A stretch of DNA of 64,000 bases, from assembly GCA_029976005.1 (NCBI GenBank), contig JARKOQ010000149.1:68400-132399 (forward strand), written 5' to 3'. This document shows positions 14,868 through 59,935 of this stretch, piece by piece. This stretch comes from Aggregatilineales bacterium (GTDB lineage: Bacteria; Chloroflexota; Anaerolineae; Aggregatilineales; Ch27). The position numbers and the translations under genes were made by a program. Within the stretch, counting starts at the first letter, position 1; every line of letters starts with the position of its first letter. The notes below the pieces were generated by a model. The model saw only the letters and a list, made by a program, of their open reading frames with translations. It made no database searches and was not told the DNA's origin.

Positions 14868-14890
14868 CTGGAACACGGCGGAATATCCAA

Positions 14891-15002
14891 TCATCTGCCA
14901 GAGGATGCCTCCTCTGCCGGAATTAGCACCTTCCTGGCCGATTGCGACAGGCCAGGGGTTGCCGCGGTTTCGTTGGGCCGGTCCCTCCACCGCTCTGGAT
15001 GA
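14891..15002 (-). promoter_or_regulatory. SAM-I (S-box) riboswitch aptamer upstream of metK
   Basis: The minus strand reads UCAUCCAGAGCGGUGGAGGGACCGGCCCAACGAAACCGCGGCAACC...GGAAGGUGCUAAUUCCGGCAGAGGAGGCAUCCUCUGGCAGAUGA. This matches the conserved S-box cores AGAGxGGUGGAGGGAxxGGCCCxAxGAAxCC..GCAACC and GGUGCUAAxUCC, with P1 closure UCAUC/GAUGA. Confidence 0.9.
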
Positions 15003-15218
15003 CGTATGCAGTTGGCATGCGGTATGGTAGCATGCCAGCCATGCCGTGTCAAGCCAACTCGAATCGGGCCATTCCGAATTGGGAGCAAGGTCATACTCCA
15101 AGTCGGAAATGCCACCCTCGAATCCGGCCAGCGCCGGCTCCCCGCCGGGGAGCGAGCGCGATTGATTTTGACCATATCGGGGGTACACTAGAAGGGGTAG
15201 GCGAGGAGAAAACGTGGC

Positions 15219-52889: not shown

Positions 52890-52939
52890 TCTTTCGCCGA
52901 CGAATGTGGTCTGTTCGAATTCATAGAGAGGGCAAGTCT

Positions 52940-55732
52940 ATGGATGCCAAGCTGGAAATTCCTCCCAGCCCCTCATCAACCAGGCGCCGCCGGGGACAGG
53001 CGCTGGCAGAATTTGCGCTCACGCTGCCGATTCTGCTGTTACTACTGTTCGGCATCATCGAGTTCGCCCGGATCTTCCAGGCCTGGGTGACCCTGCAGAA
53101 CGCGGCGCGCACGGCGGCCCGTTATGCCATCACCGGGCAGGTGGAAGCCGCCGAACTGGAAAAAATCGCCGATACCTACGCCATCAGTGTCGGCAACACG
53201 GCGGCGGCGGCCGCGGCCGATACCCGCAACCAGCTCTGTCTGAACGGCGACTATCGCGGGACGCACTCGGCTTTCGGCCCGTACACGCCCGCCGGGTATC
53301 AGGACTACGAGTCGGTCTTCGCCAATCACTGGGACGGCCTCGACTGCGAGCCGGGCAGTGAAGATCACCAGGGTCTGATCAACGACATGGGGCGTATCGG
53401 CTCCATCCGCAACCAGGCGCGCATCGGCGCGGCCGGTCTGGACGTCCGGATGTGGGATGACCAGGCCTACGCCATCGAAGCCGATCCCGGAACCGGCGAC
53501 TTCGTGCGCTGGGCCAATGATACCGTGCCCGGTTGGTTCCACGTCTTCATCTGCTCGTCGCGGCCCACCCTGCGCGAAGGCGACGACGCCACGCCGCGCT
53601 ACACCGCCAATCGTGACAACCTGACCTGCGTCGTTCAGGAATACCGTGGCACGCCGCCTTCCGGCTACACGGACTACCACGACGACGATCAGACCGTCAA
53701 TAACTATCAGAATCTCCAGTGGGACGCCGGCGGCCCCGGCGACGCGGTCGAGATCATCATCACCTTCAACCACCCACTGATCACCCCGCTGGCCCTGCCG
53801 ACCTACGTCCAACTCCAGGCCCGCCGCGTGATGGTCAACGAAGCCTTCCGCTCCTCGCGCGTGGTCAACCTGCCGCCGGCGCTGGCGCGGGCGTCCGCGA
53901 CTCCTTCGGATACGCCGACGGCTTCCGACGTGCCTCCGGCGACCGATACCGCGACGCCGACCGACACCCCGACGGCGACCGCCACGGCGACCCAGACCGG
54001 GACGCCCACCGCCACCGCGACCCCGGACTGCTCGATGCTGTCGATCGTCAGCACCGGCTTCAGCGGGGCCTACTTCCAGGTCAGCATCCGCAACGAGAAC
54101 ATCGCCGCACTCAACCTGGAAGGCGTGCGGCTCGAATGGCCCAAGCACGCGCTGTTCCCGAACATGTACGCCGACCTGATGCAGTGGCAAGGCCAGACGC
54201 ACTGGGATGGCACGGATACCACGCCGCCCACCATCACCGGCGCCGCGCCTGGCCCTGGGACCGACGCGACCTGGATCAGCAGCGCCAACGTGCGTCTGAA
54301 TGGCAACAGCACCGCCAACTGGCAGGTTCGCTTCGCCAACGGCCCGTTCAACATGTCGGCCTACTACAACCGTCCGGACTTCACCGGGTCGACCTGGTAC
54401 TTCAGCAATGGGTGCGTCCTCAGCTACTCGGAGGCGACCCCGACGCCGATACGCGGAACGCCCACCTTCACGCCTACCCCGGTCTGCGGCACCTACAACC
54501 TGCGCTTCGAGGCCTTCTGGCCGCACGGCGTGGTTCAGTTCAGCATCACCAACCCAGGCGGCACGCCGATCCAGATCACCGGTATCGACATGCGCTGGAT
54601 CTATTACTACAGCGGGATGAATCTCGACTTCATCTCCATCGGAGGCACCAACGCCTTCGACCCGGCCACGGTCATCGTCTGGAACGGCAACGACGTGGGG
54701 ACAACCGTCGGGGCGGTAACCAACACGGCGACCGGCACGCTGGGTAGCGAACCGACCTGGCTGATCAACGCCACGGTCAATGTGGGCGACACCGTCTACA
54801 TGTGGCTGGACTACGACGGTACGTCCGAGTCGCTCGATACGGGCTACGGCGCCAAGGACTACGACTTCAACGGCACGCGGATCGCCTTCGACAACGGCTG
54901 CATCATCACGCCGCCCGTCATCAACACGCCCATCCCGCCCCAGTGCGGTGACAGCATCGTTCAGAGTTCGCTCGGCGAGCAGTGCGACGACGGCAACACG
55001 GTCCAGAACGATAGCTGCGACAACAACTGCAAGTTCACCTGCGGCAACAACGTGGTGCTTGCGCCGGAAACCTGCGACGACGGCAACCGGGTCAGCGGCG
55101 ACGGCTGTAACAGCTCGTGCCGCCTTGAGTACTGCGGTGACGGCGCGACCCAGTCGGCCCTCGGCGAGCAGTGCGACGACGGCAACACCAACGACACGGA
55201 TAGCTGCAGCAACACCTGCCGGTACACCTGCGGCAATGGCGTCGTCGCCGGCTCCGAGCAGTGCGACGACGGCAACCGGACCAGCGGCGACGGCTGCAAC
55301 AGCTCGTGCCAGAAGGAATACTGCGGTGACGGCACGATCAACAAGGACTACACCACGGGCGTGGTGGATCAGTGCGACGACGGCAACAAGAACAGCGGCG
55401 ACGGCTGCTCGAGCACCTGCCGCATCGAAGCCCCGGTCTGCGGGAACAGCCGGGTGGAAACGGGCGAGCAGTGCGATCCGCCCAGCAGCGCGAATTACTG
55501 CTCCAGCACCTGCCAGCGTATCCCGTACTGCGGCGACGGCACGGTCAACCAGGCCAGCGAGCAGTGCGAGCCGCCCAATACCTCGACCTGCAATGCGACC
55601 TGCCAGCGTATCATAGCTGCGCCGGTCTGCGGTAACGGCGTGGTGGAAACCGGCGAGGAGTGCGAGCCGCCCAACACCTCGACGTGCAGCTCGACCTGCA
55701 AGATCAGCATCTGCATGGACTGCGGCAGCTAG
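52940..55732 (+). CDS. Giant TadE-like-anchored surface protein with two internal paralogous domains and eight C-terminal Cys-rich repeats
   Basis: GAGAGGG precedes ATG 52940. RRGQALAEFALTLPILLLLLFGIIEFARIFQAWVTLQNAARTAARYA is a TadE-like domain. Thr/Pro linkers are present. The C-terminus carries repeats of the form CGDG....GEQCDDGN...GDGCSS.C. Confidence 0.75.
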   Translation: MDAKLEIPPSPSSTRRRRGQALAEFALTLPILLLLLFGIIEFARIFQAWVTLQNAARTAARYAITGQVEAAELEKIADTYAISVGNTAAAAAADTRNQLCLNGDYRGTHSAFGPYTPAGYQDYESVFANHWDGLDCEPGSEDHQGLINDMGRIGSIRNQARIGAAGLDVRMWDDQAYAIEADPGTGDFVRWANDTVPGWFHVFICSSRPTLREGDDATPRYTANRDNLTCVVQEYRGTPPSGYTDYHDDDQTVNNYQNLQWDAGGPGDAVEIIITFNHPLITPLALPTYVQLQARRVMVNEAFRSSRVVNLPPALARASATPSDTPTASDVPPATDTATPTDTPTATATATQTGTPTATATPDCSMLSIVSTGFSGAYFQVSIRNENIAALNLEGVRLEWPKHALFPNMYADLMQWQGQTHWDGTDTTPPTITGAAPGPGTDATWISSANVRLNGNSTANWQVRFANGPFNMSAYYNRPDFTGSTWYFSNGCVLSYSEATPTPIRGTPTFTPTPVCGTYNLRFEAFWPHGVVQFSITNPGGTPIQITGIDMRWIYYYSGMNLDFISIGGTNAFDPATVIVWNGNDVGTTVGAVTNTATGTLGSEPTWLINATVNVGDTVYMWLDYDGTSESLDTGYGAKDYDFNGTRIAFDNGCIITPPVINTPIPPQCGDSIVQSSLGEQCDDGNTVQNDSCDNNCKFTCGNNVVLAPETCDDGNRVSGDGCNSSCRLEYCGDGATQSALGEQCDDGNTNDTDSCSNTCRYTCGNGVVAGSEQCDDGNRTSGDGCNSSCQKEYCGDGTINKDYTTGVVDQCDDGNKNSGDGCSSTCRIEAPVCGNSRVETGEQCDPPSSANYCSSTCQRIPYCGDGTVNQASEQCEPPNTSTCNATCQRIIAAPVCGNGVVETGEECEPPNTSTCSSTCKISICMDCGS
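54944..55729 (+). repeat. Eight tandem Cys-rich repeats (Myxococcus cysteine-rich repeat / DUF4215-like), coding
   Basis: Units of about 30-38 aa each have 4 Cys, for example CGNGVVAGSEQCDDGNRTSGDGCNSSCQKEY. In the last three units DDGN is replaced by EPPNTSTC. Confidence 0.8.
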
Positions 55733-56642: not shown

Positions 56643-58265
56643 TCAACTCGGACTGGCCCCGGTGGGATTGTCCAGAGCAGCCTGCACGTACCTCTCCAGT
56701 TGCTCCGCCGTCAGCACGCCCAGATGGCGGGCCACGATCACACCCTCCCGATTCACGATGAAGGTCGATGGCATGCTGATCACCTGGTAAACGCCCGCCG
56801 TGATCCGCTCGTCGGGATCGAGCACCAGCGGGAAGGTCAGCCCGAACTCCTGGCGGAAGGCGGCCACGCGCCCGGCGGATTCGGCCCGATTCACCCCCAC
56901 GACCAGCACGTCCTGATCGGCATAACGCTCGGCGGCCGCCTGCAAGTCGGGCATCTCGGTCCGGCAGGGACCGCACCAGGTCGCCCAGAAATTGAGCACG
57001 ATCACGCTGCCCCGCGTTTCGCTCAGGGTGAAAGATTGGTTGCCGTCGGTCACGGTCTCGAAATCGGGCGCGATCAGCCCTTCATCCAGCCCGACGGCGG
57101 GCAGATCGGCGGATTCCAGCGGCGCGAGGCTGCCCAGAATGCCCGACGCGGCCGCCTCCCCTCCGGGAGATGCGGGCGCGGCTGCATCGCCCTGCCCCGC
57201 CGGGACGTAGTTCAGGCCCGCGTCCATGCACGCCCCAACCTCGCCCAGACCGATCCGGCCGCTGAACAGCTCCGTCGCGCAATGTTCCAGGTTAATCGAG
57301 AAGTCACCGGCCGAACCAAGCTGGCTGAATTGCTGAAGCTGCCCGGTCAGCACCAGCACTCCGATCACGATCAGGAACAGGCCGCTCACCAGCTCGATCG
57401 TCTTCATGTGGCGCTGCAAGCGGCGCAGCAAGCCCTGCATCCGATCCAGGGCGACGGCAGTCAGCAGGAAAGGCACCCCCAGCCCCAGCGAGTACGCGGT
57501 CAGCAGCAGCCCGGCCTGGCTCAGCGATCCCCCGTTGGCGGCCAGAGTCAGCACCGCGCCATACACCGGGCCGATGCACGGCGTCCACCCGGCGGAAAAG
57601 ACCACGCCCATCAGGGCCGACCCGGCATACCCGGCTTCGCTGCGCGCCTGCATCTGGCGGCGCGTATCGGCATACAGCACCGTTTGCAAGCGAGTCAGAG
57701 TCTTCATCCAGAAATCGCCGGGCCGGGTCAGCGCCCCACCCAGCACCAGCCAGCCTGCGTACAGCCCCACCCCGATCGCGATTGGGATCAGCGTTACCAG
57801 CGACCAGGCCAGCACCAGCCCAACGAGCACTTCGACGGCCAGCGTGATCGCGTAACCTACGCCGTTATTCATCTGGCCGGTCTGGCCCATCACCCAGCCA
57901 ATCACGCGCGGCAGAACGCCCATGACGTGCAACCCGAAGAGCACGATCACAAGGCCGCCCAGGCGGGTCAGGATTTCCTGCACGTCCACCACCGAGCCGC
58001 GCAGGGCCAGCGATCCGGCCGTGGTCAGCAGGCCGAAGGTGACGAAGACAAACGTGAAGCCCAGCACGAAAAAGAGGCCATGGATCAGGGTGTTGAAGCG
58101 ATTCTGGTGCGCGGCGACCGCGCCGCCGCCCGCCGTCGCCGCGACCTGAGTCGTCACCTGCCCGCCCATGTAGCCCACGTAGGCCGGCACCAGTGGCAGC
58201 ACGCAGGGCGAGATAAATGACACCAGCCCGGCGATGAAGGCGATTCCAATCGTGATATCGGCCAT
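56643..58265 (-). CDS. CcdA/DsbD-type thiol-disulfide transporter fused to a TlpA/ResA-like thioredoxin domain
   Basis: N-terminus FIAGLVSFISPCVLPLVPAYVGY and a second GWTPCIGPV (CcdA Cys pair). C-terminus VIVLNFWATWCGPCRTEMPDL (WCGPC). Confidence 0.85.
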   Translation of the reverse strand: MADITIGIAFIAGLVSFISPCVLPLVPAYVGYMGGQVTTQVAATAGGGAVAAHQNRFNTLIHGLFFVLGFTFVFVTFGLLTTAGSLALRGSVVDVQEILTRLGGLVIVLFGLHVMGVLPRVIGWVMGQTGQMNNGVGYAITLAVEVLVGLVLAWSLVTLIPIAIGVGLYAGWLVLGGALTRPGDFWMKTLTRLQTVLYADTRRQMQARSEAGYAGSALMGVVFSAGWTPCIGPVYGAVLTLAANGGSLSQAGLLLTAYSLGLGVPFLLTAVALDRMQGLLRRLQRHMKTIELVSGLFLIVIGVLVLTGQLQQFSQLGSAGDFSINLEHCATELFSGRIGLGEVGACMDAGLNYVPAGQGDAAAPASPGGEAAASGILGSLAPLESADLPAVGLDEGLIAPDFETVTDGNQSFTLSETRGSVIVLNFWATWCGPCRTEMPDLQAAAERYADQDVLVVGVNRAESAGRVAAFRQEFGLTFPLVLDPDERITAGVYQVISMPSTFIVNREGVIVARHLGVLTAEQLERYVQAALDNPTGASPS

Positions 58266-58372: not shown

Positions 58373-59233
58373 TCAGACCACGTCCAGCGGCGCGCCTTCC
58401 GGCAACCAGCCGTACAGCCAGCGCGCCAGCGCGGGATGCACTTCCCAGCCCGCGCCCGTTCCGGCCCGGCCAAACCGGTTGTGCCAGTGCGCGCCATAAA
58501 GACGCACCGGCCCGGCGCGCAAAACCCACGCCGCGCCGGGAGGCAATGCCGCGCCGGAGGGCGCGCGGCCTTCCAGGCGATAGCGGCCCGCTTCCAGCCC
58601 GGCAGGCGGCGCGGCGGGCAGGCGCAGTACAGCCCCCTCGCCTTCGAGCGCGAGGACGATCCCGGCCACCCGGTCGAGGCGCAGGCCGCGCCGGGCGGCC
58701 TCCGCCTGGGGCACCGGGGGGACGTCCACCACCGCCCAGCGATCGGCGGAAGTCCACCCTAGCGGCTCGCTGCCCGGTTGAGGCGCAACGCCCAGCCAGT
58801 CGCCAATCCCAACCAGGCGATCCGAGGCGGCCATTACGCCGCCATACCCGACCCGCCCCACCAGCGGCGCATCCGCCGCGGCCCACGCCCGCAGCGGGGC
58901 GACCGGCGCATTCACGCATACCCAACCACAGCCAACCAGCGGCGCGACCCCGGCCAGGGGAAGCATCGGCTGGGCATCCTCGCGGCGCAGGTAGCCCGCG
59001 CCGGTGGCATACCAGTCCCCGGCCGCTTCGCGGACCCGTACCACGCTATCCGGCCACAAACACCCCACAACCTCGGCCCCGACGGCAGGCTGCCGGTAGA
59101 GGCTGGCGGCGGTCAGGACGCGTGCCTCCACGACCTGCGGCGCGTCCGGCAGGCCCAGATCGATCGGCAGGGTCGAGGCCAGCGCGGCCGCGCCACACCA
59201 GCCCAGAAACGTCCGCCGTGAAATCACGCCCAA
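58373..59233 (-). CDS. Tat-signal exported hypothetical protein
   Basis: SRRTFLGWCGAAALA is a twin-arginine motif. The start is a non-ATG codon (TTG 59233 or GTG 59227). I recognise no catalytic motif. Confidence 0.55.
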   Translation of the reverse strand: MGVISRRTFLGWCGAAALASTLPIDLGLPDAPQVVEARVLTAASLYRQPAVGAEVVGCLWPDSVVRVREAAGDWYATGAGYLRREDAQPMLPLAGVAPLVGCGWVCVNAPVAPLRAWAAADAPLVGRVGYGGVMAASDRLVGIGDWLGVAPQPGSEPLGWTSADRWAVVDVPPVPQAEAARRGLRLDRVAGIVLALEGEGAVLRLPAAPPAGLEAGRYRLEGRAPSGAALPPGAAWVLRAGPVRLYGAHWHNRFGRAGTGAGWEVHPALARWLYGWLPEGAPLDVV

Positions 59234-59341
59234 ACCTGCACCCCGTTCAGCCCTCCCCGATCCTCTACGGATCGACGCGGTCCGGCACGAAAACCGGGGG
59301 ATTACCCCCGGTTCGATCCCCTGGTTTATTGTACTGGCCGA

Positions 59342-59935
59342 TCAGCCTCCGGCAACCAGCCGGTCGAGCGCGGCCTGAAGCTGTTCCTCAGTCTGGTAGC
59401 CGACGAGGCGCTCCACCAGGTTGCCCTCCGCATCCAGCAGGACGATCAGCGGGATGGCGGACACCTCGTAACGGTAAGCCAGATCGCGCGTCGACAGGAG
59501 ATCGACGTTGAGAATATCGAATGTCACCCGGTCTGCATATGCTTCTTCAAGCCGTCGCACGGACGGACGCATCGCGTTGCAAGTACTTCACCACCGGGCC
59601 TGGAACTCGACCAGATGCGGCAGCCCGGTACGCTGGATGGCATACGGCGTCGCGGAAAGGTCCTGGGTCGGGATCAGCCCGGCGATGGCCGTCAGGGTCG
59701 CCAGCGGCCCAGCCACGGGCGGGGCCTCGGTCGGCAGGACAAACACGCTGGGCGGCGGCGTGGCGGTGGCGCTCCCAGGCACGGGCGTCGGCAGCGCGGC
59801 GATCTGCCCGCCCAGCGGCGCGCTCGCCCCAGGCAGGGAGCCAACCACCGTCCTGAGGCCGTCTACCAGCAGGGTACAGGCCCCCGTCGCCAGCGCCAGC
59901 AGCGCCAGGGCCAACAGCAGCAGTGCACGTTTCAT
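59342..59935 (-). CDS. Thioredoxin-fold lipoprotein with in-frame TGA at the first position of the CxxC motif (candidate selenoprotein, otherwise a nonsense pseudogene)
   Basis: ATG 59935 follows GAAAGGGG. Signal/lipobox MKRALLLLALALLALATGAC. Track ORFs 59588..59971 and 59342..59572 are in the same frame, split by a single TGA (59588-59590): LVEFQARW-TGA-STCNAMRPSVRRLEEAY...SAIPLIVLL. Confidence 0.6.

Follow-up and report, generated by a model that had tools for sequence, protein, structure and literature searches.

The gene described here lies on the minus strand of a 64,000-nucleotide stretch of DNA from an Aggregatilineales bacterium (contig JARKOQ010000149.1 of assembly GCA_029976005.1, positions 68,400 to 132,399 of the forward strand; the whole stretch is referred to below as the window). 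It encodes a thioredoxin-like protein, and its reading frame is interrupted by one TGA codon. This codon, UGA116, very probably encodes selenocysteine (Sec, U), in which case the gene (59935..59342) specifies a single selenoprotein of 197 residues. The TGA is conserved among relatives, translation continues past it, the encoded domain has a thioredoxin fold and a hairpin downstream of the codon is conserved. An initial annotation of the window had proposed one 197-codon selenoprotein of the thioredoxin-fold UxxC type, and this proposal was supported by TGA in 27 orthologues, TGC in homologues with cysteine at the same position (Cys forms), purifying selection and the conserved hairpin.

In the proposed mechanism, UGA116 would be decoded as Sec by a Sec-tRNA(Sec) that is delivered by SelB, with SelB being recruited by a short mRNA hairpin located 22–39 nt downstream, inside the codons R-P-S-V-R-R of the first helix. 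The product would comprise a signal peptide extending to a conserved Cys, a flexible tether and a thioredoxin domain with Sec as the nucleophilic first active-site residue, and would act as a thiol-disulfide (selenenylsulfide) oxidoreductase tethered on the outer face of the cytoplasmic membrane. Its reduced state would most likely be upheld by a CcdA-TlpA electron conduit encoded two genes downstream. For selenium insertion, lipidation, the direction of electron flow and the partner, this scheme states what we infer.

Reading frame and conservation of the TGA

Retranslation of the minus strand reproduced the two open reading frames (ORFs) of the initial annotation, which share one frame and are split by a single TGA. 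The frame starts with the ATG at 59935, ends with the TGA at 59344..59342 and comprises 197 sense codons, with the TGA at 59590..59588 as its sole interruption (junction ...GLPHLVEFQARW-[TGA]-STCNAMRPSVRRLEEAY...). The complete coding sequence including the predicted Sec116 was assigned to 59342..59935 (minus strand) from the frame, the Pfam matches and orthologues of like build. The read-through product of 197 residues carries ...HLVEFQARW-U-STC-NAMRPSVRRLEEAY..., with the UGA to be read as Sec116 at 59588..59590 and the putative redox motif U116-S-T-C119 at 59579..59590. This motif was aligned to the WCGPC of solved thioredoxins and, in a model of an orthologue, sits where the first helix begins. 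The claim that the TGA stands where a thioredoxin CxxC motif has its first Cys was thereby confirmed, as it was by the Pfam match given below.

DNA sequences of relatives were collected by exact look-up of protein matches and by one scan each of metagenomes and of GTDB species genomes. Of the 29 relatives that a protein search with the read-through product brought up, 22 are only 113–127 residues long and all end at ...EF[QHRK]A[RWGPM]W. At the DNA level, 27 distinct Sec-form sequences from Anaerolineae metagenome-assembled genomes and metagenomes were available, and all 27 have TGA at the identical codon. Protein identity among them ranges from 53 to 100% over the domain (93 codons compared), and their true terminators differ (TGA, TAA or TAG). 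Four runs that were assembled independently (SRR23724717, -19, -21, -22) contain the window's selenoprotein sequence without a difference, and the 26 further sequences with the same TGA come from NCBI, JGI, ENA and Logan. A single-base error in sequencing or assembly, which had been listed as an alternative in the form of a base-call error, has nothing in its favour beyond its a priori possibility; with four independent assemblies and 26 other sequences agreeing on the same codon, it is next to inconceivable and was excluded.

Homologues were inspected for the residue at this column, and either TGA or TGC (Cys) was found at the same codon, as predicted for a selenoprotein. Of the Cys-form loci, five were read at the DNA level (L019, L025/L044, L026/L045, L043) and all of them have TGC, and the TGA of the Sec forms and the TGC of the Cys forms occupy the same codon of the motif W-x-S-x-C-N-A-M. 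P0004-P0007 and P0048 are Cys forms known from their protein sequence. Carriers of the Sec form include the assemblies GCA_964533805.1 and GCA_042583435.1 and the WGS sets CAWKMN01 (with the 1.72-Mb contig CAWKMN010000003.1), DAOTXK01, JAIOAT01, CAZGXI01, CAYMTN01 and CAKZOB01, and Cys forms are present in DYGW01, JAXGOK01 and JAHDWP01. An exhaustive HMMER census, in which a family-specific N-terminal fragment was compared with 1.84 billion representatives, gave 18 clusters at 50% identity: 15 terminate precisely at the W, in one (P0047) the printed sequence is W-W-S-S-C, and two are Cys forms. P0047 was counted among the Sec forms because the same printed W in P0001 proved to be an artefact of the translation table. 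By this count, Sec would clearly be the majority state of the family (16 versus 2 clusters).

The Trp in question was considered as a genuine residue (TGG) at the Sec codon of P0001 and rejected, given that the contig has a stop there and the deposited product is not obtained under translation table 11. The product of L046 174-782 (JGI Ga0568854_0525389) prints WWSTC, and its DNA has a stop at that codon. The Trp printed in P0001 and P0047 is an artefact of a translation table with TGA=Trp (code-4 type), as shown on the DNA of P0001. In public records, the selenoprotein gene is thus obscured in two forms. Some split it into a 113-127-residue 'hypothetical protein' (e.g. GAB4575484.1, NPV67502.1, MFC1959073.1) and a truncated thioredoxin, and others render the Sec codon TGA as Trp; gene calling with TGA=Trp hides the selenoprotein in another way than truncation does.

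The two forms also differ outside this codon. The first helix reads LPxVLR in Cys forms versus RPSVRR in Sec forms. An extra C-terminal Cys-rich tail, CPTxTPxxxxCxAC, is present in the Cys forms P0004-P0007 and in the loci L025, L026 and L043-L045 and is missing from all Sec forms. P0048 (185 residues, WWCSPCNQMRPSIRRMEAQY) is a Cys form that nevertheless retains the RPSxRR helix typical of Sec forms, and could represent a recent Sec-to-Cys conversion with a remnant of the selenocysteine insertion sequence (SECIS).

Evidence for translation past the TGA was obtained from the codons that follow it. The 72 downstream codons contain no further in-frame stop or frameshift in any of the 27 sequences, and the mean column entropies at codon positions 1/2/3 are 0.67/0.50/1.24 downstream of the TGA versus 0.51/0.45/1.17 upstream. 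Judged from these sequences, purifying selection carries on undiminished across and after the TGA. The five codons from the TGA to the next ATG read S-T/A-C-N-A, do not include a start codon and take in the invariant second Cys of the redox motif. In an alignment of 17 sequences (A2), their third positions vary in five of five cases, their first and second positions in only one of ten; wider alignments added few first- or second-position changes. Because change is concentrated at third positions, these five codons are translated, and because none of them is a start codon, this is possible only by read-through of the TGA. Reassignment of the genetic code does not account for this, since 24 of the window's 50 likely genes end in TGA, which makes it the most frequent ordinary stop, and the neighbouring SufE and CcdA-TlpA genes are among those it terminates.

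Two readings in which the TGA acts as a stop were weighed against these data. The first, a nonsense pseudogene that arose by a change of TGC or TGT to TGA in a decaying gene, had been named as an alternative in the initial annotation; it would take one base change from a Cys codon, and databases annotate the gene as two fragments. Against it stand the same TGA in orthologues down to 53% identity, the lack of any extra stop or frameshift, undiminished purifying selection and the excess of Sec-form over Cys-form clusters. The orthologues do not all carry Cys beside a decaying locus, as would befit a pseudogene; instead, 27 carry TGA and none is decayed. This reading is highly improbable, and the pseudogene was excluded for lack of decay in any orthologue. 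The second is a conserved split gene, with termination at the TGA and restart at an ATG 16 nt further on, which would yield a 115-residue exported lipoprotein and a 76-residue cytoplasmic thioredoxin fragment. Gene callers predict exactly two ORFs in every assembly, and the in-frame ATG (Met122) is invariant. However, Met122 is also present in the unsplit Cys forms, which makes it a structural residue rather than a start. A split would cut the active-site motif, delete the nucleophile and export the first strand while leaving the rest of the fold without a signal peptide; the five codons between the TGA and the ATG, which contain no start, evolve as coding sequence and hold the invariant second Cys, and the single domain of the AlphaFold model needs both halves. 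A split gene is therefore very improbable, and a continuous frame with Sec at codon 116 is the preferred reading.

The hairpin and decoding of the UGA

A SECIS-like hairpin is located at 59551..59568 (minus strand) and has a core stem CCGUC/GACGG with the apical loop CGUGC (59566..59552) and a closing G-C pair across a bulged U. Its sequence, GUCCGUCCGUGCGACGGC, occupies 59568..59551, that is 22-39 nt past the U of the UGA, and the spacing between UGA and hairpin is 26 nt. According to the bacterial SECIS (bSECIS) model, the loop comprises 3-9 nt, the upper stem 4-16 bp and the spacing from the UGA to the loop 16-37 nt, with a G in the first two loop positions (PMC13188914). The hairpin satisfies this geometry with a loop of 5 nt whose second position is a G with a U after it, a stem of 5 bp that extends to as many as 7 in orthologues, and the spacing given above. 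The model further sets an energy threshold of <= -7.5 kcal/mol (PMC13188914). In the window, the hairpin has -6.7 kcal/mol locally and -9.0 to -14.6 kcal/mol if forced within 45-66 nt, so that the threshold is reached only when flanking pairs are counted. In several orthologues, it reaches -11 to -11.6 kcal/mol with a probability of >=0.96.

Conservation of the hairpin was assessed in several ways. RNAalifold, applied to 17 orthologues, returned exactly the CCGUC/GACGG helix with the loop CGUGC. For a 7-bp version of the hairpin in 27 sequences, 86% of cells were paired, compared to 26-50% when the 3' arm was slid, and none of 500 shuffles reached as high a value. The pair 39-55, which lies below the core stem, is G-C in six sequences, C-G in six and unpaired in 15. 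At four-fold degenerate third positions, mean entropy is 0.33 within the hairpin (codons for S, V, R, R) versus 1.28 at 18 codons elsewhere in the gene (one-sided Mann-Whitney test, p=0.003). One orthologue has AGA in place of CGA, a change that affects just one base of the loop and leaves the stem intact. Divergent orthologues contain other hairpins at almost the same distance from the UGA (UGCGCC-GGUC-GGUGCA in L013/L033, CAUCCG-UGGAU-CGGAUG in L036), in which the canonical sequence is lost and a G is found within the first two loop positions. A comparable hairpin was not found in the Cys forms, where values of -0.8 to -4.4 kcal/mol were obtained versus -4.3 to -11.6 kcal/mol. Beyond this site, no further copies of the hairpin above chance level were detected in the window, and an Rfam search of the window at gathering thresholds did not return a SECIS or tRNA-Sec family. 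The hairpin described in the initial annotation thus kept its position and its bacterial-SECIS geometry, and it is conserved in orthologues, but its folding in the window's own RNA is marginal. Its identification as a SECIS is well supported but unproven.

Several observations weigh against the Sec reading. The hairpin is not part of the single-sequence minimum free energy fold of 59530-59600, a region that folds no better than shuffled sequences (z=+1.68), and its ensemble probability in the window is about 0.1-0.15 (66 nt after the UGA). When three outliers were added to the RNAalifold input (27 sequences), the hairpin was no longer obtained as the consensus. True compensatory changes are confined to one or two base pairs, and part of the conservation would be at the protein level, because the hairpin sits in conserved codons. 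The Sec-decoding machinery was searched for in the 64-kb window and about 0.6 Mb of related loci, not in whole genomes. Genes for selA, selB and selD were not found by tblastn with the E. coli proteins (E<=1e-3; window and related loci of up to 20.6 kb each), nor was tRNA-Sec by ARAGORN (window and 15 loci). A six-frame scan for in-frame TGA codons with flanking ORFs did not reveal another selenoprotein gene in the window or in loci L001-L045. The CcdA-TlpA neighbourhood, finally, is lacking in the more distant Sec-form loci (L013, L018, L021, L033, L035, L037). The residual doubt about Sec116 stems from the machinery, which was not seen, and from the weakness of the hairpin in the window's sequence.

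The six-frame scan also produced a TGA site with the reading ALDTR*C (reverse strand; L043 4593-5483, L044 14638-15450, L045 13855-15117), but a conserved gene runs on the opposite strand there, and the site was rejected as low-complexity sequence of that gene read off-frame.

Sec decoding is known in the class Anaerolineae, because Anaerolineales single-cell genomes carry SelB, some of them together with Sec-containing formate dehydrogenases, and Anaerolinea thermophila encodes SelB (PMC4959059). A tRNA(Sec) has been described for Chloroflexi (PMC5389517), for which an 8/4 form is reported, and the Chloroflexota include genomes with 46-49 selenoprotein genes (PMC13326102).

Decoding of the UGA without selenium was considered as well. 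In this case, a SelB paralogue and a tRNA(Cys) that resembles tRNA(Sec) and has a UCA anticodon would insert Cys, or near-cognate suppression would insert Trp. The Sec machinery was not seen in the searched sequence, and some anaerobes have selC* tRNA(Cys) species with opal anticodons, together with selB*, that suppress UGA with Cys in E. coli (PMC5389517). However, the reports of selC* concern Firmicutes, Thermodesulfobacteria, Nitrospirae and Proteobacteria, with none from Chloroflexi, and in every case a complete Sec system was present too (PMC5389517). Recoding to Cys would be needless, as TGC would serve, as it does in the Cys forms. Trp in the place of the nucleophile would end redox activity, yet the remaining xxC and the cis-Pro are strongly constrained, and the W in the database entries P0001 and P0047 stems from the translation table. 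Read-through without selenium is therefore improbable. For the version in which the UGA and the hairpin form a SECIS/SelB-like system of the Chloroflexota that recodes to Cys by means of a tRNA(Cys) mimicking tRNA(Sec), following the selC*/selB* idea (PMC5389517), the odds are slimmer still; if true, it would represent a dedicated 'Cys at UGA' system beyond the phyla in which one has been proposed.

Architecture of the protein and known relatives

Profile searches were performed with Cys substituted for U116. The protein matched PF00085 (Thioredoxin) with 57.3 bits (gathering cut-off 23.5; E=1.8e-15) and PF13098 (Thioredoxin_2) with 39.9 bits (cut-off 27). The segment W-[TGA]-S-T-C aligns with W-C-G-P-C of the Alicyclobacillus thioredoxin (1RQM/1NSW), and the match to thioredoxins of the PDB has E=2e-14. 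The thioredoxin-fold domain (residues 96-197; 59345..59650, minus strand) was delimited from the Pfam and PDB sequence matches, the AlphaFold model of an orthologue and Foldseek. It is laid out as strand, U-S-T-C, helix and beta-alpha-beta-beta-alpha, and contains an invariant cis-Pro (I161-P162).

The structural model is that of the orthologue P0001 (68% identical), which was built on 30 family sequences and stands in for the window protein. Its N-terminal helix corresponds to the signal peptide, residues 20-100 have low confidence (predicted local distance difference test, pLDDT, 46-69), and residues 100-202 form a beta-alpha-beta-alpha-beta-beta-alpha unit with block-mean pLDDT values of 86-98. 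The Sec position (121) follows a strand (112-117) and immediately precedes the first helix (122-138). A Foldseek comparison of this model with the PDB placed thioredoxins on top, with a template modelling score (normalised to the target) of about 0.8 and a root-mean-square deviation of 1.0-1.5 A for the best superpositions.

The signal peptide (59876..59935, minus strand; MKRALLLLALALLALATGAC) was identified by direct reading. It has a positively charged n-region and a hydrophobic core, and ends in a putative lipobox residue, Cys20, that is invariant in the full-length alignment A1. Most orthologues have a lipobox-like L-[AST]-[GA]-C, many of them in the canonical form L-A-G-C, L-S-A-C or L-T-A-C, and in one divergent orthologue (L036) the Cys is lacking at this position. 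The N-terminus is thus as described in the initial annotation, which had read it as a lipoprotein signal, and Cys20 is conserved; the window's own lipobox (A-T-G-A-C), however, has a non-canonical residue at -3 compared to [LVI][ASTVI][GAS]C. The protein is probably a lipoprotein that is lipidated on Cys20. The adjoining tether (59651..59875, minus strand) comprises about 75 residues rich in Pro, Ala and Thr, includes the family-specific motif GPLATLTAIAGL in alignment A1 and corresponds to a region of low pLDDT in the orthologue. From the sequences and the model, the protein is predicted to start with a signal or lipid anchor, which a flexible tether of about 75-80 residues joins to a minimal U-x-x-C thioredoxin.

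Thioredoxin-fold UxxC proteins are the commonest class of bacterial selenoproteins. Their established or confidently predicted families include thioredoxin (PF00085), the thiol:disulfide interchange protein (PF13098), redoxin and TlpA-like proteins (PMC1794560, PMC13188914). The thioredoxin UxxC family (PF00085) is listed as experimentally supported in prokaryotes (PMC13188914), and seven sequences have been counted (PMC1794560). Like these selenoproteins, the window protein has the classical fold, with the predicted Sec, where the first long helix begins, replacing the nucleophilic (N-terminal) Cys of CxxC, a candidate SECIS hairpin within the coding region just downstream, and Cys homologues. 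Unlike them, it begins with a signal peptide and a lipobox Cys, continues into a disordered tether (about 75-80 residues) and would reside outside the cytoplasm instead of in the cytosol. The family also differs in its dipeptide, which is S-T/A (or G-S/T) instead of G-P, in its confinement to Anaerolineae and in the majority of Sec forms. Since the protein scores below the TIGR01068 equivalog cut-off for canonical TrxA (56.5 versus 96.8 bits), it is classed, by profile score, as a relative with a thioredoxin fold, not as a TrxA orthologue.

The match to PF13098 is shared with exported thioredoxin-fold UxxC oxidoreductases, which were compared by profiles; unlike in these proteins, the tether carries the motif GPLATLTAIAG, seen only in the window's family. 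No NCBIfam model specific for a selenoprotein reached its cut-off, the best being TsoB (NF045694) with 24.5 versus 805 bits, and the WAxxUGC model NF041054 was not passed either. A membrane-tethered extracytoplasmic thioredoxin fold is also found in the CcdA-dependent reductases TlpA, ResA and CcmG, including the 'UGC-containing TlpA family' and 'ResA-like WAxxUGC' (NF041054). As with these reductases, the gene is encoded beside a CcdA conduit, albeit in the window's subclade only; unlike in their case, this adjacency is not conserved family-wide, and the domain is a minimal classical thioredoxin, with TrxA-type proteins of about 105 residues as top Foldseek matches. The scores against ResA (26.4 versus 170 bits) and DsbE (18.8 versus 123 bits) set it further apart. 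The hairpin, in turn, resembles the E. coli fdhF-type SECIS and the bSECIS consensus in its location within the coding sequence, its small loop, where positions 2-3 are G-U, and the bulge or mismatch beneath the stem. It differs from the fdhF-type element in being very short and in having no extended lower stem to the UGA, and the SelB site is putative.

Gene neighbourhood, proposed reductant and meaning

Neighbouring genes were assigned with Pfam and NCBIfam. The selenoprotein gene belongs to a co-directional run that encodes a rhodanese, a SufE-like protein, a molybdoenzyme of the sulfite oxidase family with a twin-arginine translocation (TAT) signal, the Sec-thioredoxin, a 285-residue protein with a TAT signal, a CcdA-TlpA fusion and a DUF2085 protein. 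The fusion (56643..58265, minus strand) combines a CcdA (DsbD_TM) part with a TlpA domain, carries WCGPC and is a candidate source of reducing equivalents that is syntenic in the window's subclade only. This gene order is kept in about ten distinct loci of the subclade. In the more distant Sec-form loci, the gene adjoins different genes, for instance one for a HypE-like protein or for SurE, and the rhodanese-SufE-molybdoenzyme...CcdA operon was consequently rejected as a universal context of the family. In three species of the subclade (L005/L030 11643-12779; L011; L032), CcdA lacks the C-terminal TlpA domain (378 versus 540 residues), and the Sec-thioredoxin gene is retained.

It is plausible, and the most economical hypothesis, that CcdA-TlpA keeps the Sec-thioredoxin reduced in this organism. 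Behind the idea stand partial synteny and what is generally known of CcdA/DsbD pathways; it is weakened by the restriction of the neighbourhood to one subclade and by the three members without a TlpA domain. The 285-residue protein (58373-59233, minus strand) is conserved and has no Pfam or NCBIfam family. It contains two SH3b-like repeats and a C-terminal motif that resembles YkuD (L,D-transpeptidase) and lacks the catalytic Cys (nine orthologues). As there is no invariant Cys across the nine orthologues, it is not an obvious thiol substrate.

A terminator-like G+C hairpin followed by a T run is located about 35 nt past the stop codon of the selenoprotein gene (59297..59309, minus strand); it is a consensus match only, and such sites are no more numerous in the region than in shuffled sequences. 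A weak sigma-70-like match at 59328-59355 (minus strand) overlaps the end of the gene. Because of these two elements at the gene end, the selenoprotein gene may close one transcription unit, with the CcdA-TlpA genes being transcribed apart.

Further features were recorded in the window and the related loci. In another Sec-form lineage, the HypE-like gene lies immediately downstream (L018 9289-10380; L021/L023/L042 10480-11571), and its product belongs to the PurM superfamily and ends in PRIC; it is a relative of SelD, not SelD itself. A protein of 942 residues (52904-55732, plus strand) starts with a TadE-like segment, contains numerous Cys-rich CGDG...EQCDDGN repeats (DUF4215 type) and also adjoins the cluster in L005 and L009. 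The sole Rfam family found in the window is an S-adenosylmethionine (SAM, S-box) riboswitch aptamer at 14888-15005 (minus strand; 85.4 bits, gathering cut-off 44.4).

The protein is best described as a new, predicted selenoprotein, restricted to Anaerolineae, within the established thioredoxin-fold UxxC class, and not as a new kind of system. The concept of bacterial selenoproteins is left unaltered, and the finding will not surprise specialists. A family model would mend the annotation in dozens of Anaerolineae genomes, and the alignment of 27 sequences, with its compact SECIS candidate and nearly invariant CGUGC loop, provides a hypothesis for the RNA specificity of SelB in this class. The predominance of Sec over Cys is the reverse of the usual pattern in thiol-oxidoreductase selenoproteins. 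It is conceivable, although we regard this as a tentative suggestion and would not yet call it likely, that Sec is ancestral and nearly obligate in this lineage-specific, extracytoplasmic and lipid-anchored thioredoxin, which would constitute a selenium-dependent branch of the CcdA/DsbD pathway in Anaerolineae; this is much more likely than recoding of the UGA to Cys. The finding would place selenocysteine outside the cell membrane in a widespread class whose members are mostly uncultured and abound in sludge, sediments and hot springs, and would imply a need for selenium in the extracytoplasmic thiol-redox chemistry of Anaerolineae.

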